From positions 1,842 through 65,841 of the forward strand of contig CAZZLX010000001.1 of NCBI GenBank assembly GCA_964655235.1: DNA of 64,000 nt, in the 5' to 3' direction. This stretch comes from an uncultured Rhizobium sp. (GTDB lineage Bacteria; Pseudomonadota; Alphaproteobacteria; SHVZ01). Position 1 is the first letter of the stretch; each line of letters starts with the position of its first letter. Shown in pieces: positions 2,916 through 63,654 of this stretch. The notes under the pieces were generated by a model that worked only from the letters and a program-made list of their open reading frames with translations, had not been told where the DNA came from and ran no database searches. Position numbers and translations under genes: made by a program.

Positions 2916-3941
2916 ATGAACAGGCCAAAACACGTCGCCAACATGAGTTTCTTCCAGGACAAGAGCATCCTGGTCACTGGGGGGACCGGGTCGTTCGGTC
3001 GCCGCTTCGTCGAGCGTCTGCTGGCTGCCGGCAAGCCGCGGCGCCTCATCGTATTCAGTCGCGACGAGCTCAAGCAGCATGAGATGCGCGAGAGCATGCT
3101 GGGCGGCAGGACCGATCCGATGCGCTACTTCCTGGGCGACATCAGGGATTGCGACCGGCTTCGTCGGGCATTCCACGGCGTGGACATCGTCGTGCATGCG
3201 GCGGCCCTCAAGCAGGTACCGGCGTGCGAATACAACCCGATCGAGGCTGTCCTCACAAACGTCATGGGCGCGCGCAACGTCGTCGAGGCGGCGATCGACC
3301 AGGGCGTCGAGCGGGTGATTGCTCTGTCGACCGACAAGGCAGTCAATCCGATCAACATCTATGGCGCGACGAAGCTTTGCATGGAAAAGCTGATCGTCCA
3401 GGCCAATGTGTATTCGGGCCGGGGCCAAAAGCCGTTCTTCGCCTGCTCGCGCTACGGAAACGTGATCGGCAGCCGAGGCTCGGTGGTGCCGCTGTTCAAG
3501 GCACAGCGCTCCAGCGGTCGCGTCACCGTCACCGATCGGCGCATGACCCGCTTTTGGCTGACGCTCGACGAAGGCGTCGATTTCGTCTTCGAGTGCATTG
3601 CCCGCATGAAGGGTGGTGAGGTTTTCGTTCCGAAGATTCCCAGCATGCGGATTACCGATCTGGCGGGTGCGGTTGCTCCGGGTTGTGAGATCGACGTCGT
3701 CGGGGTTCGACCAGGCGAGAAGCTGCACGAGGTGCTGCTGTCGGAGGACGAGGCGCGACATGCCCGGGACGTCGGCAACGCATATGTGATCCTGCCGGAC
3801 GGCGAGGATCTGCAGATTCCGGACGATCAGATCCAAGGCGCGACGTTGCCGGAAGGATTTCGCTACAGCAGCGACTCCAACGACAGCTGGTTCAGCGCGA
3901 AGGACTTAGAGGCGATCCTTCAAGAATCCGCCAGCAGCTAG
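2916..3941 (+). CDS. pseB: UDP-GlcNAc 4,6-dehydratase (PseB/FlmA; CapD-like short-chain dehydratase)
   Basis: ILVTGGTGSFG Rossmann motif, YGATKLCMEKL (YxxxK), ~340 aa and ACSRYGNVIGSRGSV match PseB/FlmA. ATG at 2916, or alternatively 2943. The ORF-track start at 2625 is an upstream extension. Confidence 0.88.
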   Translation: MNRPKHVANMSFFQDKSILVTGGTGSFGRRFVERLLAAGKPRRLIVFSRDELKQHEMRESMLGGRTDPMRYFLGDIRDCDRLRRAFHGVDIVVHAAALKQVPACEYNPIEAVLTNVMGARNVVEAAIDQGVERVIALSTDKAVNPINIYGATKLCMEKLIVQANVYSGRGQKPFFACSRYGNVIGSRGSVVPLFKAQRSSGRVTVTDRRMTRFWLTLDEGVDFVFECIARMKGGEVFVPKIPSMRITDLAGAVAPGCEIDVVGVRPGEKLHEVLLSEDEARHARDVGNAYVILPDGEDLQIPDDQIQGATLPEGFRYSSDSNDSWFSAKDLEAILQESASS

Positions 3942-3960
3942 GGCGGTTGGACGTACGAGC

Positions 3961-6258
3961 GTGGTGCAGGCGCTTTTCACGTCCGAACTGGAATCCGCTG
4001 CTCGAGCGCATGATGCCGGAAAGCTGGCAGAAGCGTTGCGCGGCTTCCGTCGCGCCGCTGTGCTGGATCCGGCGAGCCTGCCGGTCATCGGTTCGATCGG
4101 GCTGGTTCTTCTCGATGCGAACTCGAATGAGGCCGGCAGGTGGTGCGGCACCGCCGTGCACCTGGACCCTTACAATATAGCCGCCTTGCACAACCTCGCC
4201 CTGGCATCCAGGCGGGCGGATCCAGGGCGGACACTTCGTCGGCTTCTGGCGCTCGCACCGTCGTACGAGGAGGGCGGCAGGCTGCTTGCAGCCGCCGACG
4301 TGTCGCGCGGAAACCTCCAGACGGGCGACACGAGGCTGAGGCGCGTCTTGGGCGCTGCGCCGCTGTCGGTCGCCGTACTCGTGGACGCCGCGGAAAGCGC
4401 GCGGCGTCTCGGGCGTCAGGGCCGGTCGGATGCGGCGCTTCGGGCCGCGCTGGCACTTGCGCCGACGAATGTCGGCGTTCTTAACGCCGGTGGCGTTCAG
4501 GCCCAGAGGAAGACTGATGGCGACAGGGCCATCCTCCTCTATCGACGCGGCCTCGCGGTGAACGATCGCCATCCGGCTCTGTGGAGCAATGTCGGGATGG
4601 CCTTCATGCGCCGGGGGCTCGTCGGCCTGGCGGCAGGCGGCTTTCGACGGTCGATCGCGCTCAATCCGCCCGGCGCCGATGCGATGGCCGGTCTCGCTTT
4701 CGCCGAGGGCGTCAAGCGGCAGGAAGAGAGGTCCTTGTCCTTGTGCCGGCGTTCCATGGTGCTGGAGCCGGCCGCCGCTGCGGCGCGTGCTCTCTACGCA
4801 TCCATCGAGCGGACGCGCGGGCGACTTTCCGAGGCGGCGCTGCACTGCCGGCTGGCCTTGGTGTCCCAGCCCGACGATGCCACGACGCACATGGTGCTGG
4901 GCGCGGCCTATCAGGAGATGCGAAAGCTCGAAGCGGCAATGACGGCTTTCGGGCGAGCGCTTGCGGGACAGGCAGGCTTCGTCGATGCGGAACGGAATCT
5001 GCTCTACGCGCTCCTTCATCTCCCGGGCGTTTCGGAAGAACGTGTGTTCCGATCGACGGTGCTGTTCGCGACGCGGCATCAGCCCGCGGAAGACGCCGTT
5101 CTGCCGAAACCAGCCAACGATGCCGACGGCGAACGACGTCTCCGCGTCGGCTACGTCTCGTCCGATTTTCGTGAGCATCCCAATCGCTGGTTCATGAATG
5201 CGCTGTTCGAGCACCGGGATCGGGAATCCATCTCGGTCGTCTGCTACAGCGCGAGTTACCAGAAGGATCGCGAAACCGAGTGGATCAGGTCGAAGGTCGA
5301 TGGCTGGCGCGAGGTCGTCGAAATGAGCGACGTCGAGATCGCCAAGGCGATGCGGGAGGACCAGATCGACATCGCTGTTTTCATCGGCGGCCGGTTCGAT
5401 GGAAATCGTCCCCTCGTCGCGGCCTATCGCGCGGCGCCCGTTCAGATCTCCTATCTGGATGGAGGAACCAGCGGCGTCCGCCACATGGACTACTGGATTA
5501 CCGACGGAACGTTGCATCCGGAGGGCGGGACCAAGGAGATCTTCAGCGAGGAGCTGTTTCGACTCCCGGTCTTCTACTCCTTCACGCGGCCGATGCCGAA
5601 CGTTCCCGTGGTCGTGCCGCCGGCCTTGCGGGAAGGGCGGATCACCTTCGGATCTTTCACGCAGCCAGCGAGGATCACGGACGAGGTCATTTCCGTCTGG
5701 TCCGAGATCCTTAATGCGGTACCCGGCAGCCGCGTGCTGCTGAAGTCGCGGAACCGCTACGGCGATCAAGCCAACCGGAATCTTCTGGAAATGGCCTTCG
5801 CCGACCGGGGCATCTCGGGGGATCGCTTGCTGCTAGGGACGACGACGGACAGTCATTCGGCGCATCTGGCGCAGTACGGACGGATGGATATCGCGCTCGA
5901 CACCTTCCCGTTCAACGCGGCGACGACCAACTTCGAGGCGCTCTGGATGGGCGTTCCGATCGTGACCTTGCCGGGCACAAGGTTCGTCGCGAGGATGGGG
6001 GCTGCCATCCTGACGTCCGCCGGCCATCCGGAGCTGGTCGCGACCGACCGCCGCCACTATATCGACATCGCCGTCGGGCTTGCGCGCGACGTCGGCCGAC
6101 TGGCCGATCTCAGGTCCGGGCTTCGCGAACGGCTCAGAGCGTCGCCCTTGTGCGACGGTCCGGCATACGCCAGGAACATGGAGGCGGCTTACCGGTCGAT
6201 GTGGCGGCGATGGTGCCAGCAGCAAGCTGTTGAAGCGCTTCGACAGTCGCGGCCATAA
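3961..6258 (+). CDS. TPR-repeat protein with C-terminal GT41-like (O-GlcNAc transferase family) domain; FlmG/OGT-like
   Basis: 765 aa. The N-terminal half is TPR-like. The C-terminal half has ITFGSFTQPARIT..., RMDIALDTFPFNAATTNFEALWMGVPIVTLPGTRFVARMGAAIL, which matches the human OGT C-lobe motif (…[28 protein letters not shown]…). It lies 20 bp downstream of pseB. Confidence 0.88.
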   Translation: MVQALFTSELESAARAHDAGKLAEALRGFRRAAVLDPASLPVIGSIGLVLLDANSNEAGRWCGTAVHLDPYNIAALHNLALASRRADPGRTLRRLLALAPSYEEGGRLLAAADVSRGNLQTGDTRLRRVLGAAPLSVAVLVDAAESARRLGRQGRSDAALRAALALAPTNVGVLNAGGVQAQRKTDGDRAILLYRRGLAVNDRHPALWSNVGMAFMRRGLVGLAAGGFRRSIALNPPGADAMAGLAFAEGVKRQEERSLSLCRRSMVLEPAAAAARALYASIERTRGRLSEAALHCRLALVSQPDDATTHMVLGAAYQEMRKLEAAMTAFGRALAGQAGFVDAERNLLYALLHLPGVSEERVFRSTVLFATRHQPAEDAVLPKPANDADGERRLRVGYVSSDFREHPNRWFMNALFEHRDRESISVVCYSASYQKDRETEWIRSKVDGWREVVEMSDVEIAKAMREDQIDIAVFIGGRFDGNRPLVAAYRAAPVQISYLDGGTSGVRHMDYWITDGTLHPEGGTKEIFSEELFRLPVFYSFTRPMPNVPVVVPPALREGRITFGSFTQPARITDEVISVWSEILNAVPGSRVLLKSRNRYGDQANRNLLEMAFADRGISGDRLLLGTTTDSHSAHLAQYGRMDIALDTFPFNAATTNFEALWMGVPIVTLPGTRFVARMGAAILTSAGHPELVATDRRHYIDIAVGLARDVGRLADLRSGLRERLRASPLCDGPAYARNMEAAYRSMWRRWCQQQAVEALRQSRP

Positions 6259-6286: not shown

Positions 6287-8161
6287 ATGGGCGCGGAACA
6301 GCACAAGGAGGGGCGCGAAGGCGCGGCGACCGACGCGGTGGTGCGTGCCGTAGCGCTGGCGGCGACGCTGAGGGATCGCGATCCGTCGTGCCTGATCCCC
6401 GCGCTGGTCGCAACCGTCAAGGACATCTCGACGCGGCTTGCGCGCGAAGAACAACTCTCTCCCGCAGCGCTCGAGCCGATCCTCACCGACGCGGCAAAAC
6501 GCGACAAGGACGACATCGTCGCGGTCCTGTCGGGACTCATCGCCGTGCAGCTGATCGATCGACAGCAGGCGTCGGACGAACCCGCGGATGGCGGCAAGCG
6601 CCTTTCGCCGGATCTCGTGCTCGGCATTACCAAGCGGATCGCCGCCGAGACGATAGGTGAGGATTCCTACCTCCAGCAGCTCGGCCGATGGCTGGCGGCA
6701 GGCGCACGGGCGTGGTCGTCCGAGTTCTATCCGCTCGAGGTGCGGAACCTGATGGAGCGCGTTCTGCGGCTCGTCGCGGTCCACGGTGCCGAAGCCGTCA
6801 TGGGCAGCGTCAGCCTCCTGTCCGCACCGTTCCGGAACGACGAGGATCTCGAGGCTCTGCTCGGCCAGGGACGACGCCGGCAAATGGCCGAGGCCCGCGA
6901 CAATGTCGCCGATGATGCGCTGGTCGTCCTGTCGTCGGCGCACTTCCAGAGCCTCCGGGAGGCTCTCTACAAGAACAACTTCCGGAAGGTCGAAGGATCG
7001 CCTTGGCCGACCGCGCCGCTGGAGCGCAGCAACGCCAAGAGCTACGCGCAGCTGCGGCCGGCCGCGATGGATCTCGGCTCGCTCATGGCGCCCAAGACGA
7101 TCGAAGCTTGGGCGACCACGATGTGGCGACAGCAGAGCGAGCTCTCCGACCTCGACGCGGATGCACTGGATGCGCTTTGTGCCATCTATCTCAGCCAGGC
7201 GCGCGGCCCCGACGACACGGCTGTCGCCGACGTCGACGAGATCCTCGCCATGCGCGGCCTGAAGCCGAAGCGGGCCGGCAGCGGCCGTCGCGGCGGCTAC
7301 GAGCCCGAGCAGCGCGCAGACATGCTGAAGGCGCTCTCGCACATCCAGAATGTCTGGATCAATGTCGCCGAGGTCATGGTGTACGAGAAGGAGACGAACG
7401 GCCAGAAGCCGCGCGCGCCTGTCGCCAAGACCCTTCAGAGCCGTCCCTTCATCATCACCGACCGCATGGGGCAGATCCGGCTCGACGGATACATAGAGGT
7501 GGAGCGCTTCATCTTCCGGCCCGGGAAGGCCTTCGCAGCGTTCCTCTTCGGAACCGGCCAGGAGACCGGCCTGCTGTTCAAGAAGGCCCTGCAGTACGAC
7601 CCGTTCCGTCGGAAATGGGAAAAGCGCATCACGCGCTACATGAGCTGGCACTGGCGAGCCGCCAGCCTGTCGGGCGAGTTCAACCAGACCTATTCCGTCC
7701 GCACGCTCCTCGACGCCGTCGGCGAAAGCGTCAATGAGCGCTACCCGTCGAAAACCCGCGCCCGGCTCGAGCAGGCGTTGGACCAGCTCGCGATCGACAA
7801 GGTTCTGGTGAGCTGGCGCTATGTCGACTGGCGCGAGGACGAGACGTCGTCGCGTGGCTGGACGGAGAAGTGGCTGGACGCGGGGATAGCGATCGAAGCG
7901 CCGCAGGTGATACGCGACTACTATCTGCGCACGCGTGGCCAGAAGCAGTCGCACGCCATCGAGCGCGGTATGCGTGGAGACCCGGCGGATCTGGCGGAGA
8001 GGCTGAAGCGGCTTCGGAAGACGCTGGGCTTGTCCCAGCAGGAAGCGGCCGCCCGCCTCGGCATTCAGCAAGGGCATGTGAGCAAGCTCGAACGTGGGAA
8101 AGCGACTCCTTCACCTCAGCTTCGGGAAGTCATCGAGACGTGGCTGTCCGAGGTGGCGTAG
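6287..8161 (+). CDS. Large protein of unknown function with C-terminal XRE-family helix-turn-helix
   Basis: ATG at 6287 (MGAEQHKEG) follows the previous stop at 6258. The ORF-track start at 6080 overlaps the upstream gene. The C-terminus LRKTLGLSQQEAAARLGIQQGHVSKLERGKATPS is a Cro/C1-type HTH. The ~560-aa N-terminal region has no family recognisable by eye. Confidence 0.75.
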   Translation: MGAEQHKEGREGAATDAVVRAVALAATLRDRDPSCLIPALVATVKDISTRLAREEQLSPAALEPILTDAAKRDKDDIVAVLSGLIAVQLIDRQQASDEPADGGKRLSPDLVLGITKRIAAETIGEDSYLQQLGRWLAAGARAWSSEFYPLEVRNLMERVLRLVAVHGAEAVMGSVSLLSAPFRNDEDLEALLGQGRRRQMAEARDNVADDALVVLSSAHFQSLREALYKNNFRKVEGSPWPTAPLERSNAKSYAQLRPAAMDLGSLMAPKTIEAWATTMWRQQSELSDLDADALDALCAIYLSQARGPDDTAVADVDEILAMRGLKPKRAGSGRRGGYEPEQRADMLKALSHIQNVWINVAEVMVYEKETNGQKPRAPVAKTLQSRPFIITDRMGQIRLDGYIEVERFIFRPGKAFAAFLFGTGQETGLLFKKALQYDPFRRKWEKRITRYMSWHWRAASLSGEFNQTYSVRTLLDAVGESVNERYPSKTRARLEQALDQLAIDKVLVSWRYVDWREDETSSRGWTEKWLDAGIAIEAPQVIRDYYLRTRGQKQSHAIERGMRGDPADLAERLKRLRKTLGLSQQEAAARLGIQQGHVSKLERGKATPSPQLREVIETWLSEVA

Positions 8162-8173: not shown

Positions 8174-9007
8174 ATGACCGTCGTCATCCCCGGCACGACG
8201 ATCTGCTGCGTCGACTGCAGCGCCTACGACCTCGCCGCGAGAGCCCTTGCGGTCAGCATGGCGCAATGCCGGTTCGAGCACGCGATCCTGTTCACCGATC
8301 GGCCGATGGATGTTGTCGGCGTAGAAGTGCGTCTCATCCCGGCGATCGCCAGCACTGCGGACTATTCGCAGTTCCTGCTGAAGGAGCTGCGCCATCACAT
8401 CACCACCGAGTTCGTGCTCGTCACGCAGTGGGACGGCTACGTGATCGACGGGCGCGAGTGGCGTCCGGATTTCCAGACCTATGACTACATCGGCGCGCGC
8501 TGGCCGCATGTGCCCGGCATCGAGGTCGGCAACGGGGGATTCTCGCTGCGGTCGCGCCGGCTGCTCGAGGCGTGCGGGGACGAGCGCTTCGTCGTGAGCC
8601 ACCCGGAAGACGCGGCCATATGCGTCAGCAACCGGCGTTTCCTCGAGAGGGAGAAAGGCATTCGTTTCGCCCCCCCTGAGCTTGCCGAGCGGTTCTCGTT
8701 CGAGCGCACCAGGGATGGCTGGCCGCATTTCGGCTTCCACGGGCTCTTCAATCTTCCGTTCGTGATGGCGGATGAGGAACTGCCGGGGTTCGTCGCCGCG
8801 ATGCCCGCACGCATCGCCTGGATGGGCGAGCTCTTCGAAGCTCTGCTCGCCTACATGGCGACCGGACGGGTGCGAGAGGCGCGGACGATCTGGCACTGGA
8901 TGACGCGGCATCGCCCGGAAGCGGAGATGGTGAGCTTCATGAGGCAGCACGTCCGGCCGCTCGACGCCTGCGAGAATATCATCGCAGCACTTACTGCCGC
9001 CGGATAG
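8174..9007 (+). CDS. Conserved hypothetical protein, possibly a glycosylation-associated DUF
   Basis: 277 aa, 13 bp after the upstream stop, same operon. Cys-rich N-terminus (TICCVDCSAY). No catalytic motif recognised. Confidence 0.6.
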   Translation: MTVVIPGTTICCVDCSAYDLAARALAVSMAQCRFEHAILFTDRPMDVVGVEVRLIPAIASTADYSQFLLKELRHHITTEFVLVTQWDGYVIDGREWRPDFQTYDYIGARWPHVPGIEVGNGGFSLRSRRLLEACGDERFVVSHPEDAAICVSNRRFLEREKGIRFAPPELAERFSFERTRDGWPHFGFHGLFNLPFVMADEELPGFVAAMPARIAWMGELFEALLAYMATGRVREARTIWHWMTRHRPEAEMVSFMRQHVRPLDACENIIAALTAAG

Positions 9008-10844
9008 GAAAGCTCGCGTCGAGCATCTCGATCACCTTAACGATGACGGCCGACCAATCACCAGGCGAGGGCTGACGGAAGAGCCGGACGCTCGGATACC
9101 AGGGGCTGTCCGTTCGATCGCGAAGCCAGCGCCAGTCCGGCGGCTCGTGCAGCAGCACCCATGTCGGCCGTCCGAGAGCGCCGGAGAGATGCGCGATCGC
9201 CGTATCCGAGGTGATCACCAGGTCGAGCTTCGATATCAGCGCCGCGGTGTCGGACATGTCGGAGACCAGGGGCATCGGGTCAGCCATGCCGTCCGGAAGC
9301 GGTTCCTCCTCCCTGCGATCGAGGACGAGGGAAAGGAGATGGGGGCCCGCGATCCGCAGCAGCGGCGATACGGCGGCATAGCCGGGAGAGCGGTGCCGAT
9401 CCATGCGGAAGCGCGGATTGCCCCGCCAGCAGATGCCGATGCGTGGCTGCGGAAGATCATCGATCTGCAAAGCCCAGGCCGCGACGGCGGTCGGGTCGGG
9501 AGCGAGATAAGAGGCGGCAACGGGAAGCGCGGCCAGGGTCGGTGCGAAGATGGCGCCGAGTTCCATCAAGCCGCAGGACAGGTCGACGGTACCAGGGTCG
9601 CTGCCGATGTCGATCACGCGCGAGACTCCGGGCATTCGGCCGATCAGGCCGTGGAGCGTGTGGGCGCATTCGACGATCACCGTGCTCACACGCTTCGCGG
9701 CTGACGGGATGAAACGCGCGAACTGGATGGTGTCCCCGAGAGCCTGTTCCGGCTCGGCGCGAAGCACCAGGCGAGCAGCGCGGTCGACACGTCCGTCCCA
9801 GGCGCGCGCGCCTGGCGTCGGCCGGAAGTGGCGGTGACTGACGCAGCGCCATCGGGCCGAGAATCCTCTCCAACCTGCCGCGCAGTCGCCGTCCAGAAGC
9901 GTGATCATCGAAAGATTGAGCGTGGCTTCCGGAAAATCCCGAGCGACGGCCTGCACACGGCGAAAGCGAACGGACGCGCCGCTCGTGTCACCGACTTCGA
10001 TGCGCCGGTTCCCCGAAAGAAGAAGGGAGTGAGCGAACGCCGGCTCCGCCGCCAGCGCGCGTCGCAGTCCTCGATCGGTGCTTGGAAAGTCGCCCGCAGC
10101 CGACGCCACGAGCGCGAGGTTGTGCCAGGCGGACGCCATCTCCGGCACGATCGTGCCTGCGCGTCGGAAGGCGCAGTCGGCGTCCCGAGAACTCTGGCCG
10201 CGATGGGCTTGGAGGCCCAGGACCAGCCAGCTACCGGCATCCGCCGGAAGCAGGAGCAGCGCTTGGCAGGCATGTCGTTTTGCCGCGTCGATCTCATCGC
10301 GCGCCAGGAGAGCCTCGGCCAGGGCACGCAATGTCGATCCGTCGTCGTCCGCCAAGGCCAAGGACCGATAGAGAGGCCCAGTGCCGTCGCCTCCGAGCGA
10401 CGACAAGGCGAAACCCAGATCCCGCCACCGCGCCGACGCGCCTGGATCGAGCGCCGTCGCGCGCCGAAGTGCGCGAACGGCGGCGAGAGGATTCGCGATG
10501 CGCTGCGCCACGGAGGCGATGTCGTTCCAGGTATCCGGCGAGTCGGGTCGGGCAGCGGCCGCCCGCTCCAGCATCCCCAGGCCGACCGCCGGGCCCTCTC
10601 CGAGATGCGCATAGGCGGCGAGGCGCCAAGCATCGGCATGGGCGGGCAGCTCGATAAGGATCAGCCGGGACTTCGATCGTGTAGCGCGGAGATCGCCGCG
10701 GGCATAGGCGTCGACGGCCTCGGCGAGAAGCGCGCCGGGCGTCGCCGGGTCATTGTCCCTAGACAATGCTTGTCCTAAACTCCTGCGTCTTGGGCCAGCG
10801 ATATAGCGGCCAGAAGGCCGGCGACGCAAGGCGACGGCGCCCAT
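8991..10844 (-). CDS. TPR-repeat protein with C-terminal GT9-like domain
   Basis: The true start is the internal ATG at 10844 (MGAVALRRRPSG...). The 325 aa upstream of it in the 942-aa ORF are Ser/Thr/Arg-rich antisense of gspE. The C-terminus has RIGICWRGNPRF...SPGYAAV...LVITSDTAIAHLSGALGRPTWVLL...DWRWL...SPWYPSVRLFRQ, which is RfaF/WaaC-like. Confidence 0.85.
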   Translation of the reverse strand: MGAVALRRRPSGRYIAGPRRRSLGQALSRDNDPATPGALLAEAVDAYARGDLRATRSKSRLILIELPAHADAWRLAAYAHLGEGPAVGLGMLERAAAARPDSPDTWNDIASVAQRIANPLAAVRALRRATALDPGASARWRDLGFALSSLGGDGTGPLYRSLALADDDGSTLRALAEALLARDEIDAAKRHACQALLLLPADAGSWLVLGLQAHRGQSSRDADCAFRRAGTIVPEMASAWHNLALVASAAGDFPSTDRGLRRALAAEPAFAHSLLLSGNRRIEVGDTSGASVRFRRVQAVARDFPEATLNLSMITLLDGDCAAGWRGFSARWRCVSHRHFRPTPGARAWDGRVDRAARLVLRAEPEQALGDTIQFARFIPSAAKRVSTVIVECAHTLHGLIGRMPGVSRVIDIGSDPGTVDLSCGLMELGAIFAPTLAALPVAASYLAPDPTAVAAWALQIDDLPQPRIGICWRGNPRFRMDRHRSPGYAAVSPLLRIAGPHLLSLVLDRREEEPLPDGMADPMPLVSDMSDTAALISKLDLVITSDTAIAHLSGALGRPTWVLLHEPPDWRWLRDRTDSPWYPSVRLFRQPSPGDWSAVIVKVIEMLDASFPIRRQ

Positions 10845-18435: not shown

Positions 18436-18436
18436 A

Positions 18437-55374: not shown

Positions 55375-55378
55375 CGCC

Positions 55379-56254: not shown

Positions 56255-57942
56255 TCATCCTCGGCGTTTCCTTCCTCAGCGACGCCTCCGCCGTCGTTCT
56301 TCGCGACGGACGGCTGGTCGCGGCCATCGCCGAGGAACGTCTCAATCGCGTCAAGCAGTGGAACGGCATCCCGCACGGCGCGATCGCCAAGGTGCTGGCG
56401 ATGGCCGGGATCACGCTCGACCAGGTCGACGTGGTCGCGACCCACGGCGCCGCGCCGTCCGAGCCGCCCTCCGAACCCTATCGCGAGAAGGAGCGTGCGA
56501 TCCGCGCCGCCGGCCTTCCTGCCGATCTGGCGGAAAGCCAGCTCAAGCGGCTGGCCGAGCGCGAAGGGCACGAGCGGCGCGTCCTTGCCGAACGGACGCC
56601 CGGCTATCTGGCCGAGGTGCGGGCGCTCGGCCGGCCGCTCGATGTCCATGGCCACCATGAGTCCCACGCCGCGACCGCCCTGATCGGGCGCGGCGCTGGC
56701 GACGGCTGGATCGTGACGCTGGACGGATGGGGCGAGGACGGCTCCGGCACCGTCTGGAAGACCGATGGCGCCCGCATGGAGCGTGTCGCCTTCTCCAATA
56801 CCTTCGACTCCCTCGGCTATTTCTACGGCGCCGTCACCAAGGCGCTGGGATTCATCCCCCACCGCCACGAGGGCAAGGTGCTCGGCCTCGCGGCCTACTG
56901 CCAGCAGCCGCAGTCGTTCCGCGAGCTTCGCTCGATGATCGACTACGACCCCGGCCGCTTCCGCTTCCTCGGGCGCATGGAGCGAGGCCTCTATGTGCCC
57001 CGCATGGAGAACCCGCTGCTGTCGGCGCTCGTCGCCCGCCTGCCCCGCGAGGACATCGCCGCCGGAACCCAGCAGAGCCTCGAACAGGTCGTCTCCGAGC
57101 TGATTGACGATTTCGGTCCCGGCGCGCACAAGATCATGGTGGCCGGCGGCGTCTTCGCCAATGTGAAGCTCAACCAGCGGATCGCCGAACGGCCGAACGT
57201 CACCGACGTCTACGTCTTTCCCAACATGGGGGACGGTGGCCTCGCGGCAGGGGCCGCCTGGCTCAGCCACCTGCAGCGCGTCGGCACGACGCCCGAGCGG
57301 TTCGAGACGGCGCTGCTCGGCCCGGCGCCGACCGAAGCCGAGGTGCTGCACGAGCTCAAGAGCAGCGGCCTCGCCTACACACGCCCGGCCGACATGGAGG
57401 ATCGCGTCGCCGAGCTGCTGGCATCCAATCATGTCGTGGCGCGCTGCGCCGGCCCGATGGAGTACGGACCCCGCGCGCTCGGCAACCGCAGCATCCTCTA
57501 TCACGGCTCCGATCCGGGCGTGAACGACTGGCTGAACCGCCGGCTCAAGCGCTCCGAGTTCATGCCGTTCGCGCCGGCGACGCTGGCCGAGGCAGCGGCA
57601 GAGCGCTACATCGGCCTGGAGAAGGCGCGCGAGACCGCGAAGTTCATGGCGATCACCTTCGCCTGCACCAAGGTCATGCAGGACGAGGCGCCGGCGGCCG
57701 TCCATGTCGACGGCACGGCACGCCCGCAGGTCGTGGATCCCGTCAGCTACCCGGCCTTCCACAAGATCCTCACCGCCTATCGGCGCAGGACCGGCCGGGC
57801 CTCGGTGATCAACACCAGCTTCAACATGCACGAGGAACCGATCGTCTGCTCGGCCGCGGACGCCATGCGGGCGTTCCGGGCGAGCGACCTCCCCTACCTC
57901 GTCCTCGGCGACTATCTTGTGTCGTCGCCGTCCGCCGCCTGA
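56251..57942 (+). CDS. Carbamoyltransferase (NodU/CmcH family)
   Basis: 563 aa. MIILGVSFLSDASAVVL..., HHESHAATA metal motif, and a C-terminal domain ...FMPFAPATL...SVINTSFNMHEEPIVCS. ATGA overlap with the upstream gene. Confidence 0.85.
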   Translation: MIILGVSFLSDASAVVLRDGRLVAAIAEERLNRVKQWNGIPHGAIAKVLAMAGITLDQVDVVATHGAAPSEPPSEPYREKERAIRAAGLPADLAESQLKRLAEREGHERRVLAERTPGYLAEVRALGRPLDVHGHHESHAATALIGRGAGDGWIVTLDGWGEDGSGTVWKTDGARMERVAFSNTFDSLGYFYGAVTKALGFIPHRHEGKVLGLAAYCQQPQSFRELRSMIDYDPGRFRFLGRMERGLYVPRMENPLLSALVARLPREDIAAGTQQSLEQVVSELIDDFGPGAHKIMVAGGVFANVKLNQRIAERPNVTDVYVFPNMGDGGLAAGAAWLSHLQRVGTTPERFETALLGPAPTEAEVLHELKSSGLAYTRPADMEDRVAELLASNHVVARCAGPMEYGPRALGNRSILYHGSDPGVNDWLNRRLKRSEFMPFAPATLAEAAAERYIGLEKARETAKFMAITFACTKVMQDEAPAAVHVDGTARPQVVDPVSYPAFHKILTAYRRRTGRASVINTSFNMHEEPIVCSAADAMRAFRASDLPYLVLGDYLVSSPSAA

Positions 57943-57952
57943 GACCGAAATC

Positions 57953-59377
57953 ATGAACGACATCGCGCCGCTGCCGAACCACATCCCGCCCCGGACGATC
58001 ACCCGCTTCACGCGATCGGACGCCTATCGCGCCCAGGTCCACGAGGCGATCGCCGGCGGCGCCCACACCTATTCGAAGGGCGACGACCAGTTCCCGATCC
58101 GCTCCCCGGCCGCGATCGCCCGCGGCAAGGGCGGTCGGGTCTGGGATCCCGACGACAACGAGTATGTCGACGTCGCTCTCGGCCTCGGCTCGATCAGCCT
58201 TGGCCATGCGTACGAGCCGGTGCTCGCGGCGGTCCGCGCGCAGCTCGACCTCGGCGTCAACTTCCAGCGGCCGGCGACAGTGGAGCTCGAACTCGCCCAT
58301 GCGCTGAAGGCCGTCATCCCGGGTGCGGAGCGGGTCAAGTTCGCTAAGAACGGCTCGACCGTCACGACGGCCGCGGTGAAGCTGGCGCGCGCGTTCACCG
58401 GCCGCGACCTCGTTGCCTTTCCGTTCAACCACCCGTTCTACAGCTACGACGACTGGTACATCGGCCGGGGCAAGGCCGCCTCCGGCGTCCCCACCGGCAC
58501 GATGGCGATGTCGCTGACCTACGACTCGACCAAGCCGGACACGCTGGCCGCGCTGTTCAAGCAGCATCCCGGCAAGATCGCCGCGGTCATCACCGAGACC
58601 GAGGAACTGTTCCCGACCTCGCCCGAGTACATCCGCGAGGTCGAGCGGCTGGCGCGCAAGGACGGCGCCCTGCTCATCCTCGACGAGATGGTCTCCGGCT
58701 TCCGCTCGAGCTTCCCCGGCGCCTATCCGCGCCTCGGCCTCACGCCCGACCTGGTGACCTGGGGCAAGGGTGCCGGCAACGGCTTCTCCTTCTGCGCGCT
58801 GACCGGGCGGGCCGACGTCATGGACCTCGGCGGCCTGAAGCAGTTGGAGCGGCCCCGCGTCTTCCTTATCTCGACCACCCATGGCGGCGAGGCGCATGCG
58901 CTGGCGGCCGGGCTCGCCGTGCTCGAGGAGTACCGCCGCCACGACGTACTCGGCCATCATCATCGGCTCGTGGCGCGGATGGCGGCGTCGTTCAAGGCGA
59001 CGATCGACCGCTATGGCCTCGGCGATGCGATCCAGGCCTTCGCCTCTCCTTGGCGCATCGTTTTCGTCTGCAAGGATGCCAAGGGCGCGGTGTCGCTCGG
59101 CCACCGCACGCTGCTGATGCAGGAGATGATTGGCCGCGGTGTCCTGTTCCAGGGCCTGTTCCTGCCCTGCTTCGCGCACACCGACGCCGACATGGAGCGG
59201 ATCGAGCAGGCTTTCGACGCGTCCTGCCAGGTCTATAAGCTGGCGCTCGAGCACGGCTACGAGCGCTACCTCGACGGCGAGCCGCTCCGGCCGGTGTTCC
59301 GGCGCTACAACGGCTGTCGCCAATCCTGCCCGACCGAGCCTTGCCCGCACGAGCAGACCTGCCGCACGACGCCGTGA
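57953..59377 (+). CDS. Class-III (HemL/GSA-aminomutase-like) PLP-dependent aminotransferase
   Basis: ATG at 57953 (MNDIAPLP). ...LILDEMVSGFR...TWGKGAGNGF has the PLP-lysine context, and HGGEAHALAAGLAVLE fits the fold. The unusual Cys-rich C-terminal tail is unexplained. Confidence 0.78.
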   Translation: MNDIAPLPNHIPPRTITRFTRSDAYRAQVHEAIAGGAHTYSKGDDQFPIRSPAAIARGKGGRVWDPDDNEYVDVALGLGSISLGHAYEPVLAAVRAQLDLGVNFQRPATVELELAHALKAVIPGAERVKFAKNGSTVTTAAVKLARAFTGRDLVAFPFNHPFYSYDDWYIGRGKAASGVPTGTMAMSLTYDSTKPDTLAALFKQHPGKIAAVITETEELFPTSPEYIREVERLARKDGALLILDEMVSGFRSSFPGAYPRLGLTPDLVTWGKGAGNGFSFCALTGRADVMDLGGLKQLERPRVFLISTTHGGEAHALAAGLAVLEEYRRHDVLGHHHRLVARMAASFKATIDRYGLGDAIQAFASPWRIVFVCKDAKGAVSLGHRTLLMQEMIGRGVLFQGLFLPCFAHTDADMERIEQAFDASCQVYKLALEHGYERYLDGEPLRPVFRRYNGCRQSCPTEPCPHEQTCRTTP

Positions 59378-60408
59378 GGCGCGGCGCGCTCGTCATCCGC
59401 GCGGACGCTGATCCGACCATCGGCATCGGACATGTAGGACGGACGCTTGCCTTGAGCGCCGCCTGGCGCCAGGGCGGCGGGACGGTGCGCTACGTCACGA
59501 CCGCGCCGCTGTCCGCGGGGGCAAGATCCTGGATCGCCTCCGCCGGCATCGAGTTCGAGGTCATCGAGGCCGAGCGCTACTCCGACGAGGATGCGCGGCA
59601 GACGGCAGCGCGGGCCACCGGCGCGACGGTGGTCATGGACGTCTTCGGAACCCCCCGCGCCTATCGCACGGCGCTTCGAAGCCAGGTCGAGCGGCTCGTG
59701 ATCATCGACGATACCGGAGGGCCGGGTCCCTGGTCGGCCGACGTCATCGTCAACCAGAACCACGGCGCCTCGGCCGCGCTCTATCCTCAGCACGATGAAG
59801 GGTCGGCGTTGCTGCTGGGGCCGCGCTTCGCACTGCTCCGTCCGGAGTTCGCCCGAAGACGGGCGTTGAGACACCGCGCCGAAGGCCGAGTCCACCGCAT
59901 CGCGGTCAGCCTCGGCGGGACCGATCCCAAGGACGCGGCATCCCTCGTCCTTTCGGCCTTCGCGGCCCTGCCCGAGTCCGGCTGGCGGGCGATCCTCGTC
60001 GCCGGCGCCGGCAACCCGCGTGCCGCGGCCCTGAAGGCGCGGACCGCAGCCCTCGGCAGGCCGGTCCACGTGATCCGCAGTCCCAGCTCGATGGCGAGGC
60101 TCCTTGCCTGGGCCGATCTCGCGATCCTCGCCGGCGGGGTCACCGTGTGGGAGGCGCTGTCGCTGGGCGTTCCGGTGATCGGCATCGCCGTCGCCGACAA
60201 TCAGGTGCCGGCGGCCGAAGCCCTCTCCCGCGACGGCCTCTGGCATTTTCTCGGCCAGGTCGAGGAGATCGGGGCTGCGCAGGTCTCCGATGCGATCGAG
60301 CGGCTTCGTGCCGACTCCGGGGAGCGCCGACGGCTGTCGGCGGCCGGTCAAGCGCTGGTGGATGGAAGAGGCGCGGAACGGGTCGCCGACGTACTGGCCC
60401 GTCTCTGA
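59374..60408 (+). CDS. pseG: UDP-2,4-diacetamido-2,4,6-trideoxy-beta-L-altropyranose hydrolase (PseG)
   Basis: GTG at 59374 overlaps the upstream stop (GTGA). ALVIRADADPTIGIGHVGRTLAL is the PseG signature, and the C-terminal half is MurG-like (GGVTVWEALSLGVPVIGI). Confidence 0.82.
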   Translation: MRRGALVIRADADPTIGIGHVGRTLALSAAWRQGGGTVRYVTTAPLSAGARSWIASAGIEFEVIEAERYSDEDARQTAARATGATVVMDVFGTPRAYRTALRSQVERLVIIDDTGGPGPWSADVIVNQNHGASAALYPQHDEGSALLLGPRFALLRPEFARRRALRHRAEGRVHRIAVSLGGTDPKDAASLVLSAFAALPESGWRAILVAGAGNPRAAALKARTAALGRPVHVIRSPSSMARLLAWADLAILAGGVTVWEALSLGVPVIGIAVADNQVPAAEALSRDGLWHFLGQVEEIGAAQVSDAIERLRADSGERRRLSAAGQALVDGRGAERVADVLARL

Positions 60409-60480
60409 CGGCCGCCCCTGGCCCCGGGCCGGCAGGATCCCCAAATGACGGCAATGCGCGTATCGGCTAAGAAGGGCCCC

Positions 60481-61551
60481 ATGCCTGCCACGTCGATCAA
60501 CATCGCCGGCCGGGAGATCGGCCCCGGCCACCCGCCCTACGTCGTCGCCGAGATGTCGGGCAACCACAACGGCGACATCAGGCGCGCCTACGCCATCATG
60601 GAAGCGGCGAAGCAGGCCGGCGCCGACGCCGTGAAGCTCCAGACCTACACCGCCGACACCATCACCATCGACCACGACGCGCCCGAGTTCCGCATCACCG
60701 GCGGCCTCTGGGACGGGCGCTCGCTTTACGAGCTCTACGGCGAGGCGCATACGCCCTGGGAATGGCATCGCGACCTTTTCGCCAAGGGCCGCGAGCTCGG
60801 CATCCACGTGTTCAGCGCTCCCTTCGATCCGACCGCGATCGACTTTCTCGAGGAGCTCGGCGCGCCAGCCTACAAGATCGCGTCGTTCGAGATCGTCGAC
60901 CTGCCGCTGATCCGACGCGCCGCGGCGACCAGCAAGCCGATGATCATCTCGACCGGCATGGCGACGATGCCCGAGATCGAGGAGGCGGTCGCCGCCGCAC
61001 GCGATGCCGGCTGCACGGCGCTCACGCTGCTCCACTGCGTGAGTGGCTATCCGACTCCGGCCGAGGAAGCCAACCTCGCCACCATCCCCGACCTCGCCCG
61101 ACGTTTCGACTGCCCGATCGGGCTCTCCGACCACACCCACGGCATCGCGGTCGCGGTTGCCGGCGCGGCGCTCGGCGCGGTGGTGATCGAGAAGCACCTG
61201 ACCCTGGCGCGCGCCGACGGCGGTCCGGACTCCGCCTTCTCGCTCGAGCCGGCCGAGCTCGCGGCGCTGGTCCCGGCCGTACGCACCGCCGCAGCCGCGC
61301 TCGGCAAGGCCGGATATGACCTGAAGCCGAGCGAGCGCGGTAACACCGTGTTCCGCCGCTCGCTCTATGCAGTCGCCGACATCCGCAAGGGCGATGTCTT
61401 CGACGAGCGCAACATCCGCTCGATCCGGCCCGGCTTCGGCATGGCGCCGAAGCACCTGCCCGCCGTGCTCGGCCGTCGCGCCACGCGCGATATCCCGCGC
61501 GGCACGCCGCTCGACAGCGGCATGGTCGACAGCAACCTCGGCCCGGGCTGA
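60481..61551 (+). CDS. pseI: Pseudaminic acid synthase (PseI, NeuB family)
   Basis: ATG at 60481 with AAGAAGGG upstream. The ORF-track start is 60445. Motifs: INIAGREIGPGHPPYVVAEMSGNHNGDIRRA, KLQTY, LSDHTHG, and a C-terminal SAF/antifreeze-like domain. Confidence 0.88.
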   Translation: MPATSINIAGREIGPGHPPYVVAEMSGNHNGDIRRAYAIMEAAKQAGADAVKLQTYTADTITIDHDAPEFRITGGLWDGRSLYELYGEAHTPWEWHRDLFAKGRELGIHVFSAPFDPTAIDFLEELGAPAYKIASFEIVDLPLIRRAAATSKPMIISTGMATMPEIEEAVAAARDAGCTALTLLHCVSGYPTPAEEANLATIPDLARRFDCPIGLSDHTHGIAVAVAGAALGAVVIEKHLTLARADGGPDSAFSLEPAELAALVPAVRTAAAALGKAGYDLKPSERGNTVFRRSLYAVADIRKGDVFDERNIRSIRPGFGMAPKHLPAVLGRRATRDIPRGTPLDSGMVDSNLGPG

Positions 61552-61635: not shown

Positions 61636-61821
61636 AGAACGAATGCATCGCCGGCTTGGAGAGTTCCGGCGTTCGGCCGATGTCGGTGAAGCAGGCATGT
61701 CAGAACGGCTCCCCGACACCCTTTCGTCGGAACGAGCAGCCGACGGGTTCAATCGCTCTGCGGCATTCTTCGCCTTGCTTCGACCGTGCGAATTCGCGGC
61801 GGTACGCGTATACGATCCGCG

Positions 61822-63654
61822 TCAGCAAGCCGCCTCGAGCGTCAGGAGTCCGTTCCATCGTTGGCCGGCGCAGTGCGCCCGCCACATCGTGCGGTAAGCC
61901 GCTTCCACGCTTCTCGCATATCGCAAGGGATCGCAGAGGCGCGACGCGAGCACGCGGCCTCGAAGCGAAGCGCGAAGCGAAGCGCGCCGCGTCGGATCCA
62001 ACGCCAGCGCGGACGCGATCCGCACGTAGTCGTCGGGCGTCGCCGCGATCAGCTCGTCGAGACCGACCTGGCGCAGATGCGCCGCGCCGACCCGGCCGAG
62101 GAACCGCCGACCGGCCAAGGTCACGACGGGCACCCCCATCCACAGAGCCTCGAAGGTCGTCGTCGCCCCGTTGAAGGGAAACGGATCCAGAATGACGTCG
62201 ATCGACGCCAGGTGGTCGAGCTGGTCGTCGCGTTCGCGACGGCCGATGACGAAGTCCAACCGGTCGCCGTCGATCCCATGGCGGGCAAGACAGGCCTTGA
62301 TTGGCGTCCGCCCGTCCTCGTGCGCGAAGTGATCAAAGTATCGAAAGGAAAGACGCGAGCCCGGTACGGCGACAAGCACCCGCGCCCACAGCGCCAGGAC
62401 TTCCTCGCTCAGCTTCGCCGGGTTGTTGGTCGACCCGAAGACCACCGGTCCCCGTTCCCTTGCGGGCGGAGGATCGTGGGGACGCGATGACGGAGCGGTA
62501 TGGAGATAGAAGCTCGGCAGCCGGACCAGCGTCTCGGTGAACAGCTCCGGGCCGTCCGGCGGGTTGAGGTCGGCGTCGGTGAACCAGTAGTCCATCGCCG
62601 CGAGGCCGGTCGAGGTCAGGTCGTGCATCGAGGCCTGGATCGGCGCCGGCCGGTGGCTCGCGACGCCAGGACGGTTGGCGCTGGTATGGCCGGCGGCGGC
62701 GACCAGGATGTCGATCCCGTCGGCGGCGATCAGCGCGGCGACCTCCCTGTCGTCGAGACGCGCGACCTCGCGCCAGCCGTCCCCGAAGGCGGCCCGGAAG
62801 CGGCCCGCCAGGCCATCGGACACCGGCCCCGCGGCATAGCCGTGGATACCGACGACCCGCGGGTCGTGATGCTCGATCAGGCCGATCAGGTTCCACCCGA
62901 CCGGATGGCTCCGAAGATCGGACGAGAGGTAGCCGATCTTGAGGCGCCGGTCGGGATCGGGGTCGCGCGTCCGCGGCGGTGCCGACGACGAGGCGTAGTG
63001 CGCGCTCCATGCACGCACGGTGGCGAAGAGCCGCCGCTCATCGACATCCGGGCGATAGGTTCTGGCGAAGACGAGGTTACTGTGGATGGCTGCGTTCCTT
63101 GCGACAGCCAAGGCGCGCTGCAGGCCCAGGTCGGCGCCCGCGTGATCCAGCGTGGCCTGCTGGATCTGAGCCAGGTTGCTGAGAATGGCGGGTATCTGCG
63201 GGGCAAGTGCCAGACCCTGCCGGCTGGCGCGCATCGCCGCGGCCAGCCGACCATCGCCGCGAAGAGCATTCGCGAGATTGCCGTAAGGGGGAAACCAGGT
63301 CGGGCGAAGGCATATCGCGCGCCGGAACCATCTCTCCGCGGGGGCCGAAGCGCCGAGCTCAAGCTCGGCCACGCCACAGCTGTTGGCGGCTTCGACCTGA
63401 CCGGGCTCGATGGCGAGGGCGCGTCGATACCGCCGGCGCGCGCCGAGGCCGTTCCCGTTTCTATAAGCGCACAGGCCGAGGCCGAGCTCGGCGCGTGGGC
63501 GATCGGCAGCAATCGCCAGCGAACGCGCGAACCAGACCACCGCTTCCGCGATACGACCGTCGTCGTGAAGACCGAAGGCGAGCTGCTCCAGCAGTCCAGG
63601 ACTCCCTGGGGCCTCGATCACCGGAACCATGCGACGGGCCGTTGCTGTCGTCAT
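61822..63654 (-). CDS. TPR-repeat protein with C-terminal GT41-like domain
   Basis: 610 aa. Motifs: LKIGYLSSDLRSHPVG, VVFGSTNNPAKLSE, IDVILDPFPFNGATTTFEALWMGVPVVTLAGRRFLGRVGAAHL. Confidence 0.85.
   Translation of the reverse strand: MTTATARRMVPVIEAPGSPGLLEQLAFGLHDDGRIAEAVVWFARSLAIAADRPRAELGLGLCAYRNGNGLGARRRYRRALAIEPGQVEAANSCGVAELELGASAPAERWFRRAICLRPTWFPPYGNLANALRGDGRLAAAMRASRQGLALAPQIPAILSNLAQIQQATLDHAGADLGLQRALAVARNAAIHSNLVFARTYRPDVDERRLFATVRAWSAHYASSSAPPRTRDPDPDRRLKIGYLSSDLRSHPVGWNLIGLIEHHDPRVVGIHGYAAGPVSDGLAGRFRAAFGDGWREVARLDDREVAALIAADGIDILVAAAGHTSANRPGVASHRPAPIQASMHDLTSTGLAAMDYWFTDADLNPPDGPELFTETLVRLPSFYLHTAPSSRPHDPPPARERGPVVFGSTNNPAKLSEEVLALWARVLVAVPGSRLSFRYFDHFAHEDGRTPIKACLARHGIDGDRLDFVIGRRERDDQLDHLASIDVILDPFPFNGATTTFEALWMGVPVVTLAGRRFLGRVGAAHLRQVGLDELIAATPDDYVRIASALALDPTRRASLRASLRGRVLASRLCDPLRYARSVEAAYRTMWRAHCAGQRWNGLLTLEAAC

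Follow-up and report, generated by a model that had tools for sequence, protein, structure and literature searches.

A locus of uncultivated Alphaproteobacteria combining TPR-glycosyltransferase fusions, a type II secretion system and a candidate Ser/Thr-rich cargo protein

Protein glycosyltransferases of the FlmG class are bipartite: a tetratricopeptide repeat (TPR) arm binds the acceptor protein and a GT-B domain sets the donor (PMC7591256; 10.1101/2022.03.25.485807). We identified an island of related design in a 64-kb stretch of DNA from an uncultured Rhizobium sp. (contig CAZZLX010000001.1, assembly GCA_964655235.1; the whole stretch is referred to as the window), in which a battery of TPR-enzyme fusions is encoded together with a type II secretion system (T2SS), an operon for sugar-nucleotide biosynthesis and a Ser/Thr-rich protein with a signal peptide, the candidate cargo. 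The island can be likened by architecture to the FlmG class of Caulobacter and Brevundimonas, with which it shares soluble, cytoplasmic enzymes, an N-terminal TPR part, a C-terminal GT-B domain and linkage to genes for pseudaminic (Pse) or legionaminic (Leg) acid. It differs from that class in that FlmG is one enzyme with flagellin as acceptor, exported by the flagellar type III secretion system, whereas the island encodes about 17 transferases of four folds together with a Sec/T2SS cargo and no flagellin.

Two further groups of enzymes are related to the island by their catalytic domains. HMW1C (GT41) and TibC/Aah (GT9-like) act in the cytoplasm, where they glycosylate adhesins that are then exported by Sec, and HMW1C/NGT and TibC/Aah have the same two catalytic folds as the main families of the island, TibC being among the leading structural matches described below. 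Unlike the island enzymes, they have no TPR arms, are encoded by single genes and act on two-partner or autotransporter adhesins; the island lacks heptose-donor genes, as neither GmhA, HldE and GmhB (the ADP-heptose donor pathway) nor autotransporter genes were detected in the window by Pfam. OGT, SPINDLY, TtOGT, XcOGT and the Synechococcus Ogt combine TPR with a GT41 domain and are strongly similar to the island enzymes in the catalytic domain, but such enzymes are usually encoded by one gene per genome and have intracellular targets, whereas ten paralogues surround a secreted protein in the island. The Synechococcus enzyme is needed for glycosylation of a pilin that is handled by a T2SS-related machine (PMC9306852).

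The Aeromonas Sps/VapA system (PMC4483657) and the NpdA system of Beta- and Gammaproteobacteria (PMC10765051) each have a dedicated T2SS beside an S-layer gene. The likeness to the island lies in a private gsp cluster beside the gene for an abundant 45-52-kDa surface protein with a signal peptide and without known domains and, in Aeromonas, in the position of this unit within a glycan-synthesis locus (PMC4483657). The cargo gene of the island adjoins gspD in the related loci L005, L006, L020, L024 and L027, whereas it is 16 kb away in the window. Neither Sps/VapA nor NpdA is accompanied by a TPR-glycosyltransferase battery, and the island cargo is without NpdA homology. Each component of the island has a precedent, but the literature searched held no description of their combination (about 20 bipartite enzymes with a nonulosonate operon, a dedicated T2SS and an abundant Ser/Thr-rich protein).

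The best explanation of the locus is a three-part module of uncultivated Alphaproteobacteria, consisting of the T2SS, the Ser/Thr-rich cargo and the TPR-enzyme battery, accompanied by a nonulosonate operon. That this module is a dedicated factory, in which the T2SS exports an abundant S-layer-like protein that was modified in the cytoplasm by the TPR-glycosyltransferases, we hold to be an evenly balanced proposition. Genes were called with a codon-usage model trained on unambiguous open reading frames (ORFs) of the window (GC content 66%, 0.665); all calls and all competing opposite-strand ORFs were checked against Pfam, and the proteins were scanned against Pfam and NCBIfam. About 51 genes were called (Table 1). 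The left part of the window holds a TPR gene at the edge, secB, two genes for 81-amino-acid proteins, an aldo-keto reductase gene, pseB and a TPR-GT41 gene, followed by the genes for a 624-amino-acid helix-turn-helix (HTH) protein and a DUF5672 protein, a TPR-GT9-like gene on the minus strand and the T2SS operon of 11 genes. After the T2SS come 40 kb that consist mainly of TPR-enzyme fusions, with the cargo gene mid-way, and then the sugar-nucleotide operon of seven genes ending in pseG-pseI and the last TPR-GT41 gene. TPR arrays are fused to modifying enzymes in about 20 of the 51 genes, which is far beyond chance. No curated NCBIfam family exists for the TPR-glycosyltransferases, the cargo, DUF5672 or h91, a small conserved protein discussed below.

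The cargo is a protein of 453 amino acids with a predicted signal peptide of 36 residues ending in ASA and a mature chain of about 40 kDa. Ser and Thr together make up 31% of its residues, compared to about 10% in neighbouring proteins; Ala accounts for 16% and Gly for 12%, and there are only 16 charged residues and two Cys. Both Cys are invariant across the alignment, which fits a disulfide formed in the periplasm. The cargo matches no family in Pfam either. Exact-sequence look-ups with the cargo and with PseI returned no match. A word-based search retrieved 22 relatives, all from metagenomes or metagenome-assembled genomes (MAGs), and a HMMER profile search retrieved 179 cluster representatives, most of which are 440-490 amino acids long and carry signal peptides, with a median Ser+Thr content of 24%. 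The shared size, signal and composition of these representatives indicate that the cargo belongs to a real, undescribed family of secreted proteins. An AlphaFold2 (AF2) model of the cargo (pLDDT 70) shows three beta-sandwich domains, and a Foldseek search of this model against the PDB returned surface proteins of a generic tandem Ig-like kind, SpaP and RbmA among them, at TM-scores of about 0.2; at these low TM-scores the modelled domains resemble surface adhesins and matrix proteins. Homology to NpdA was considered and rejected, as a profile of the cargo family scored below 0 against the published sequence of NpdA of P. citrulli, and blastp of NpdA against 170 members of the cargo family gave a best E-value of 0.25. 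Export by the Tat route was likewise rejected: the motif SRKRLLL in the signal peptide is not a conserved twin-arginine motif and distant homologues have no Arg at this position, so that the Sec route is assumed. Some distant relatives of the cargo (P0199, P0202, P0206, P0210 and others) are proteins of 800-2100 amino acids in which the C-terminal domain of the cargo (profile positions ~330-440) is repeated about four times in tandem; this domain is therefore a reusable module of larger secreted proteins.

The window proteins were mapped by tblastn onto every long related locus. Five loci from close relatives (L001-L004 and L010) have a cargo that is 69-91% identical to that of the window, and keep a block formed by GT9_d, the TPR-GT61 gene, h91 (absent in L003), GT41_d, GT41_e, a TPR-GT9-like gene and the cargo gene. 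The CgeB-like gene and GT41_g follow the cargo in L001, L002, L004 and L010, and the CgeB-like gene is absent in L003. In every close relative TPR_X1 directly precedes the cargo gene, and the distant loci carry a homologue upstream of the cargo. A deep branch with a GC content of about 0.71 is represented by four long loci (L005, L020, L024 and L027) and the short locus L006, and its cargo is 33-35% identical to that of the window. In the long loci of this branch the cargo gene is located directly upstream of gspD, the genes gspN-M-L-K-J-I-H-G-F converge from the other side, and gspF is directly preceded by a GT41 gene of the same orientation; in L005, L020 and L024 this gene is the closest counterpart of GT41_j. 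Two TPR-GT9-like genes are present upstream of the cargo in L020, L024 and L027, and GT41 genes lie before them in L020 and L027; L005 ends on this side of the cargo. The cargo of L006 lies beside a secretin fragment. Cargo, T2SS and TPR-glycosyltransferases thus stay together even though the cargo has lost two-thirds of its identity, which argues strongly that the three form a functional unit in which this T2SS has the cargo as its substrate. The initial annotation had reported this co-location for the window, and the context comparison shows that it recurs at 33-35% cargo identity. The suggestion made there of a possibly general glycosylation system is not supported, since the gene order kept among the relatives points to a single dedicated cargo, or a few, rather than to modification across the proteome.

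The T2SS operon comprises the core genes for GspD, GspE, GspF and GspG, the pseudopilin genes gspH to gspK, gspM, a gspL-like gene and a 159-amino-acid GspC/N-like gene. It had been described as complete; the genes listed support this description in large part, but the GspC match is weak and a gene for the prepilin peptidase GspO is absent from the window and might lie elsewhere. Residues 21-73 of GspE match an MshEN-type domain that binds cyclic di-GMP (NF053729, 60.6 bits against a cut-off of 38), which suggests that secretion could be under the control of a second messenger.

Within the range 2916-63654, 17 genes were found to encode a TPR-glycosyltransferase fusion: ten with a GT41 domain, five GT9-like, one with a GT61 domain and one CgeB-like. 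The layout with TPR at the N-terminus and the glycosyltransferase domain at the C-terminus is common to all 17. An earlier count of 18 for this range included one gene too many, and the eighteenth may be the truncated TPR gene at the left edge (2-763), which lies outside the range and whose TPR region is nearest to the GT9-like paralogues in blastp. The TPR enzymes have no signal peptide in any case and are therefore taken to be cytoplasmic. The profile check agreed with the assignment of the C-terminal domains to glycosyltransferases, through strong similarity for GT41 and through a model of the fold for the GT9-like group.

All ten GT41 genes match PF13844 with 95-164 bits against a cut-off of 25. 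When GT41_g alone was searched against PDB sequences, its entire catalytic domain aligned with SPINDLY, TtOGT, human OGT and XcOGT. In an alignment of the paralogues, the UDP-binding motif DxxLDxxP..G..T is present in all ten and the active-site Lys, which we take to occupy the position of K842 in human OGT, in nine. The exception is GT41_a, in which Arg replaces the Lys and the motif reads FGSFTQPARITD instead of the FNNPAK of the other nine, so that its activity may be altered or lost. GT41_e gives a distant signal of the NGT/HMW1C type (NF049992, 59 bits), far below the cut-off.

The five GT9-like paralogues are 35-41% identical to each other and their Pfam matches to GT9 are sub-threshold. 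An AF2 model of the C-terminal domain of TPR_X1 (pLDDT 82, pTM 0.82) was compared to the PDB with Foldseek, and the matches 1psw, 3tov, 2gt1 and 4rap lead (probability 1.0, TM-score 0.50-0.56). These leading matches are WaaF, WaaC, a Veillonella GT9 enzyme and TibC, the protein O-heptosyltransferase of enterotoxigenic Escherichia coli (ETEC), and on the basis of the model a GT9-type GT-B fold is confirmed for the GT9-like paralogues. Sequence and profile searches of the PDB with the C-terminal domains of the GT9-like and oxygenase-like proteins matched residual TPR or nothing. A search for homologues with TPR_X1 was dominated by generic TPR proteins; no match carried a functional name, and none was called FlmG.

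The tandem genes GT41_f and GT41_g share an exact repeat of 1012 bp (40000-41011 = 42074-43085), which spans the entire catalytic domain of both, while the TPR-encoding 5' halves show a nucleotide identity of only 42-66%. The L002 orthologues and those of the window have a protein identity of only about 73%, and the two L002 copies share about 1 kb at 99.9%. This pattern, present in the window and, independently, in L002, points to recurrent gene conversion that is limited to the catalytic module. L001 shows a single copy of the repeat, for which assembly collapse is a possible cause. Judged by their sequences, GT41_f and GT41_g have the same chemistry and different TPR arms, and on the precedent of FlmG they would use the same donor on a different acceptor or site. 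The proposal in the initial annotation that many modular transferases supply combinatorial target specificity has support in this one tandem pair with identical catalytic and diverged TPR halves, and is still a hypothesis.

Signals for expression of the cargo gene are well conserved. A near-consensus sigma-70 promoter precedes a 5' untranslated region (UTR) that carries GGAG as Shine-Dalgarno sequence. Both elements are nearly invariant in L001, L002, L004 and L010 and partly conserved in L003, whereas the remainder of the 430-nt spacer upstream of the gene cannot be aligned. A strong intrinsic terminator hairpin directly follows the gene. An Rfam scan of the window and of the cargo leader found no RNA family. 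About 13 of the 20 metagenome matches to the cargo, and also L007, are single-gene contigs of 1.40-1.55 kb. Nine of the ten cargo contigs from close relatives begin 40-61 nt upstream of the ATG, within the conserved region and not at its edge, and in several the end lies no more than about 20 nt from the stop codon; L007 ends at the position equivalent to 38506. These single-gene contigs would be explained as assembled mRNA. The cargo had been annotated as a highly expressed, Thr/Ser-rich secreted protein, of which secretion and composition (31% Ser+Thr) stand on the sequence, and high expression is suggested by the transcript-like contigs and the promoter. Two other blocks in the upstream spacer are conserved in all related loci, ATTACCCCGACAATACTT (window positions 36785-36802) and CTGTTGC...GCACACAC (36700-36730), the latter just past the upstream stop codon; both are candidate regulator-binding sites.

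Genes for nonulosonate biosynthesis are found at both ends of the island. The scores of PseB, PseG and PseI exceed the NCBIfam equivalog cut-offs, in agreement with the set of pse genes proposed at first, but the 'PseF-like' member of that set turned out to be a generic cytidylyltransferase. The carbamoyltransferase and the aminotransferase noted among the pse genes are indeed present, together with an RmlD-like reductase. PseC (DegT) and PseH were not detected in the window with NCBIfam or Pfam and might be encoded outside it. From its gene content, the operon probably makes a pseudaminic-acid-type nonulosonate and other modified sugars.

Two adjacent genes, TPR_X2 and TPR_X3, encode TPR proteins that had been annotated as oxygenase fusions. 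They are paralogues with 34% identity, in which the pattern HxD...H...R is invariant. Both genes, their TPR and this pattern were recovered, but family profiles matched below threshold only (2OG-FeII_Oxy_3, E~0.1-0.2; DUF6445, E=0.0025-0.08) and no match to PDB sequences was obtained, so that an assignment to the 2-oxoglutarate (2OG)-Fe(II) oxygenases is no more than plausible. A homologue of TPR_X3 is located upstream of h268 in L003 and L010 and directly adjoins it in L010 only. Because TPR_X3 adjoins h268 in L010, the segment of three genes between them in the window (GT41_h, acetyltransferase, GT41_i) is best read as a lineage-specific insertion. A patch of low GC content at 49854-50766 (0.58 against 0.665 in the window) holds the Vat/CatB-like acetyltransferase gene between the paralogues GT41_h and GT41_i.

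The block upstream of the cargo also contains h91, an acidic protein of 91 amino acids. Homologues are encoded at 3196-3471 of L004, 3000-3275 of L010 and 10001-10294 of L028. The amino acid identity is 100% (L004) and 98.9% (L010), whereas the flanks are about 74% identical in nucleotides, and 14-15 of the 15 nucleotide changes relative to L004 and L010 are at third codon positions. By these comparisons h91 is under extreme purifying selection and is the best-conserved protein of the system. A homologue that is 82% identical occurs in a distant lineage, inside an island with TPR-GT41 and PseI genes, and only two clusters were found among 5.8 billion proteins. h91 may serve the system as adaptor, chaperone or regulator. 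The protein of 624 amino acids with a C-terminal Xre-type HTH is a candidate regulator of the island: a homologue with 54% identity is encoded in the distant TPR-GT41/PseI island (L028 3653-4648 and 5551-7407) beside a RepA_C replication-initiator gene, and the island may be on a plasmid or chromid in that lineage. The second secreted Ser/Thr-rich protein, h268, has two internal repeats (GxWW..PGRGY...) and is a candidate for a second target or substrate of the island.

The divergent intergenic regions at 25882-26014 and 44098-44398 had been noted as AT-rich, and this was confirmed (GC 0.58 and 0.59 against 0.665). The palindrome ATCGATCGAT, noted in the second region, is present as a single occurrence (44209) but does not exist as a conserved element in the closest relative, L001. 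It was dismissed as a regulatory motif because of this lack of conservation and because 64 kb should by chance contain about 60 palindromes of ten bases, whatever their sequence. No tRNA gene was found in the window.

Table 1. Coordinates of the features in the window and the evidence for each.
Feature	Position	Strand	Evidence or remark
TPR gene at left edge, N-terminal TPR part, C-terminus beyond window	2-763	-	Pfam TPR; blastp: GT9_b, TPR_X1, GT9_d
SecB chaperone	812-1267	-	PF02556, 98 bits
Two adjacent 81-aa proteins, alike in layout, beside secB	1295-1540, 1572-1817	-	No Pfam family
PseB, UDP-GlcNAc 4,6-dehydratase (inverting)	2916-3941	+	TIGR03589, 463 bits (cut-off 408)
TPR-GT41 (GT41_a)	3961-6258	+	PF13844, 164 bits
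624-aa protein, C-terminal Xre-type HTH	6287-8161	+	HTH_3, HTH_31; tblastn to L028, L029
DUF5672 protein	8174-9007	+	PF18922, 65 bits
TPR-GT9-like (GT9_a), divergent from gspE	8991-10766	-	Weak GT9 and heptosyltransferase I matches; paralogy; family fold
T2SS operon, 11 genes	10888-21051	+	Pfam/NCBIfam; transmembrane pattern; gene order kept in L005, L020, L024, L027
gspE, N-terminal MshEN domain	10888-12633	+	Family match
gspF	12626-13834	+	Family match
gspG	13831-14295	+	Family match
gspH	14225-14734	+	Prepilin motif, weak GspH/I match
gspI	14731-15174	+	Prepilin motif, weak GspH/I match
gspJ	15128-15784	+	Prepilin motif, weak GspH/I match
gspK	15781-16842	+	Family match
gspL-like	16700-17839	+	Position, transmembrane segment at residue 228, conserved synteny only
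gspM	17836-18435	+	Family match
GspC/N-like, 159 aa	18437-18916	+	Weak GspC_delta match, E=4e-4
gspD, secretin	18913-21051	+	Family match
TPR-GT9-like (GT9_b), short TPR arm	21228-22361	+	Sub-threshold GT9; paralogy
TPR-GT41 (GT41_b)	22346-24112	+	PF13844, 116 bits
TPR-GT41 (GT41_c)	24121-25881	-	PF13844, 95 bits
TPR-GT9-like (GT9_c)	26015-27610	+	Sub-threshold GT9; paralogy
TPR-GT9-like (GT9_d), first gene of block kept in close relatives	27826-29319	+	Sub-threshold GT9; paralogy; synteny
TPR-GT61	29323-30807	-	PF04577, 84 bits
h91, 91 aa, pI 4.7, cytoplasmic, no family	30838-31113	-	Conservation
TPR-GT41 (GT41_d), conserved block upstream of cargo	31233-33182	+	PF13844, 124 bits; synteny
TPR-GT41 (GT41_e), most divergent paralogue	33179-34948	+	PF13844, 102 bits
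TPR-GT9-like (TPR_X1), directly upstream of cargo	34945-36696	+	AF2 model; Foldseek; synteny
Near-consensus sigma-70 promoter of cargo, TTGACA-N18-TATAAA	37029-37058	+	Read from sequence; conserved in relatives
Candidate cargo, 453 aa	37123-38484	+	Signal peptide; composition; AF2 model; synteny
Intrinsic terminator hairpin, 10 GC-rich pairs, then T-run	38509-38532	+	Sequence
TPR-Glyco_trans_1_2 (CgeB-like)	38618-39994	+	PF13524, 81 bits; synteny
TPR-GT41 (GT41_f)	39972-42023	-	PF13844, 137 bits
TPR-GT41 (GT41_g), tandem partner of GT41_f	42028-44097	-	PF13844, 148 bits
h149, small secreted protein, conserved in relatives	44399-44848	-	Signal peptide; synteny
TPR_X2, TPR and putative 2OG-Fe(II) oxygenase-like domain	44968-46596	+	TPR matches; HxD...H...R; 2OG-FeII_Oxy_3, E=0.2
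TPR_X3, TPR and putative 2OG-Fe(II) oxygenase-like domain	46593-48152	+	TPR matches; HxD...H...R; synteny
TPR-GT41 (GT41_h), 58% identical to GT41_i	48147-49853	-	PF13844, 124 bits
Hexapeptide-repeat acetyltransferase (Vat/CatB-like), between GT41_h and GT41_i	50080-50721	+	Low-GC patch
TPR-GT41 (GT41_i)	50767-52503	-	PF13844, 131 bits
h268, second secreted Ser/Thr-rich protein (24%)	52514-53320	-	Signal peptide; synteny in L003, L010
Sugar-nucleotide operon, seven genes	53501-61551	+	Pfam/NCBIfam
GT1/GT4-like	53501-54559	+	Operon member
CTP_transf_3 cytidylyltransferase	54610-55374	+	Generic; 19 bits against PseF model
RmlD-like reductase	55379-56254	+	Operon member
Carbamoyltransferase	56251-57942	+	Operon member
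Class-III aminotransferase PRK06209	57953-59377	+	Operon member
PseG	59341-60408	+	Above NCBIfam equivalog cut-off
PseI	60445-61551	+	Above NCBIfam equivalog cut-off
TPR-GT41 (GT41_j)	61822-63654	-	PF13844, 126 bits; counterparts in distant loci
Partial small ORF, right edge	63726-63998	-	No Pfam family

Put together, these observations suggest the following sequence of events. The TPR arms would bind the unfolded pre-protein in the cytoplasm, as in OGT and FlmG, and the catalytic domains would place single sugars or very short glycans on Ser and Thr. The modified chain would pass the inner membrane by Sec, then fold and form one disulfide in the periplasm, and the private T2SS would export the protein, giving a glycosylated surface coat (S-layer-like) or matrix. 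The sequences themselves show the identities and folds of the domains, the signals for cytoplasmic or secreted topology, the conserved linkage of the genes, and the promoter, terminator and transcript-like contigs. We infer in this scheme that the cargo is the acceptor and is glycosylated, which sugars are used, and that a surface layer is formed. A more elaborate version, which we put forward tentatively and consider rather doubtful as a whole, is a glyco-secretion module in which the TPR-transferases and hydroxylases each read a different stretch of the pre-protein and together write a pattern of several sugars including the nonulosonate on the S-layer-like protein. The protein would leave by Sec and the T2SS sensing cyclic di-GMP, h91 would act as adaptor or chaperone, and gene conversion would keep the catalytic modules identical while the acceptor-binding TPR modules diverge.

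Several points weigh against the proposed factory for a modified surface protein. The case for glycosylation of any protein is built from genes, and that for high expression of the cargo from promoter quality and transcript-like contigs. At least 17 transferases are many for one acceptor of 40 kDa, and h268 may be another acceptor. Since long glycans could not pass SecYEG, the model works only with single sugars or very short chains. TPR-GT9-like and TPR-GT41 fusions also occur widely among bacteria that may lack the cargo, so that other acceptors are possible. The T2SS operon of the window ends 16 kb from the cargo gene, no homology of the cargo to NpdA or any solved S-layer protein was detected, and with PseC and PseH missing from the window and PseF unclear, a full Pse route is not demonstrated.

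Among the alternatives, the one that survives best, although we regard it as unlikely, is that the island serves FlmG-type glycosylation of flagellin or pilin encoded elsewhere, with the T2SS and the Ser/Thr-rich protein as unlinked neighbours. Flagellin genes often lie elsewhere in the genome, and the presence of PseB, PseG and PseI fits such a role, as FlmG has the TPR and GT-B layout and uses Pse (PMC7591256) and a cyanobacterial GT41 enzyme is required for glycosylation of pilin (PMC9306852). However, the FlmG systems have one transferase against about 17 here, FlmG is reportedly restricted to Caulobacterales (10.1101/2023.12.03.569772), and the linkage of cargo, T2SS and TPR-glycosyltransferases is conserved at 33-35% cargo identity. 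None of the 51 called genes matches a flagellin domain, and no flagellar or flagellin gene is present in the window or turned up for the related loci in their Pfam tables or by tblastn mapping, which agrees with the initial annotation both in the absence of flagellin from the window and in the non-flagellar character given to the system.

A second alternative, which we consider improbable, is a locus for a surface polysaccharide (lipopolysaccharide, LPS; capsule; or exopolysaccharide, EPS), to which the S-layer-like protein exported by the T2SS merely attaches. The lack of Wzx, Wzy, Wzm, Wzt, Wza, an ABC-2 exporter and an initiating phosphoglycosyltransferase in the window argues against such a locus, GspF being the sole protein with more than two predicted transmembrane segments. 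To our knowledge, all characterised GT41 enzymes act on proteins; the PDB matches of GT41_g are all protein glycosyltransferases, and nearly all transferases of the island carry a TPR arm. These points have to be set against the relationship of GT9 to the LPS heptosyltransferases and the GT1/GT4-like, carbamoyltransferase, RmlD-like and acetyltransferase genes, which are typical of glycan loci. Pse is also found in capsules, for example in S. fredii (PMC7591256), and the Aeromonas vapA and sps genes lie inside an O-antigen cluster (PMC4483657).

Regulatory glycosylation of many cytoplasmic proteins in the manner of OGT, unrelated to secretion, would suit GT41 domains near OGT and SPINDLY, the many paralogues with diverse TPR arms and a bacterial OGT-type enzyme that is reported to modify multiple Yersinia proteins (PMC11329713), but is hard to credit with enzymes whose genes lie, tightly and time after time, beside those of one secreted protein and its T2SS, with co-located nonulosonate genes typical of surface structures, and with a second secreted Ser/Thr-rich protein conserved in the island.

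How O-glycosyltransferases select their protein targets is poorly understood, and FlmG was the first bacterial case of a TPR part for the acceptor combined with a GT-B domain for the donor. In the island, about 20 such enzymes form a natural series around a single likely acceptor, and since the tandem pair GT41_f/GT41_g has identical catalytic and different TPR halves, acceptor-site specificity is directly testable by reconstitution. If the reading of the locus as a factory for a modified, T2SS-exported cargo is true, glycosylation of proteins in the cytoplasm would extend from flagellins and adhesins to a T2SS substrate, and the cargo would define a family of abundant surface proteins, new to science, in Alphaproteobacteria of the environment, with the enzymes as possible parts for glyco-engineering.

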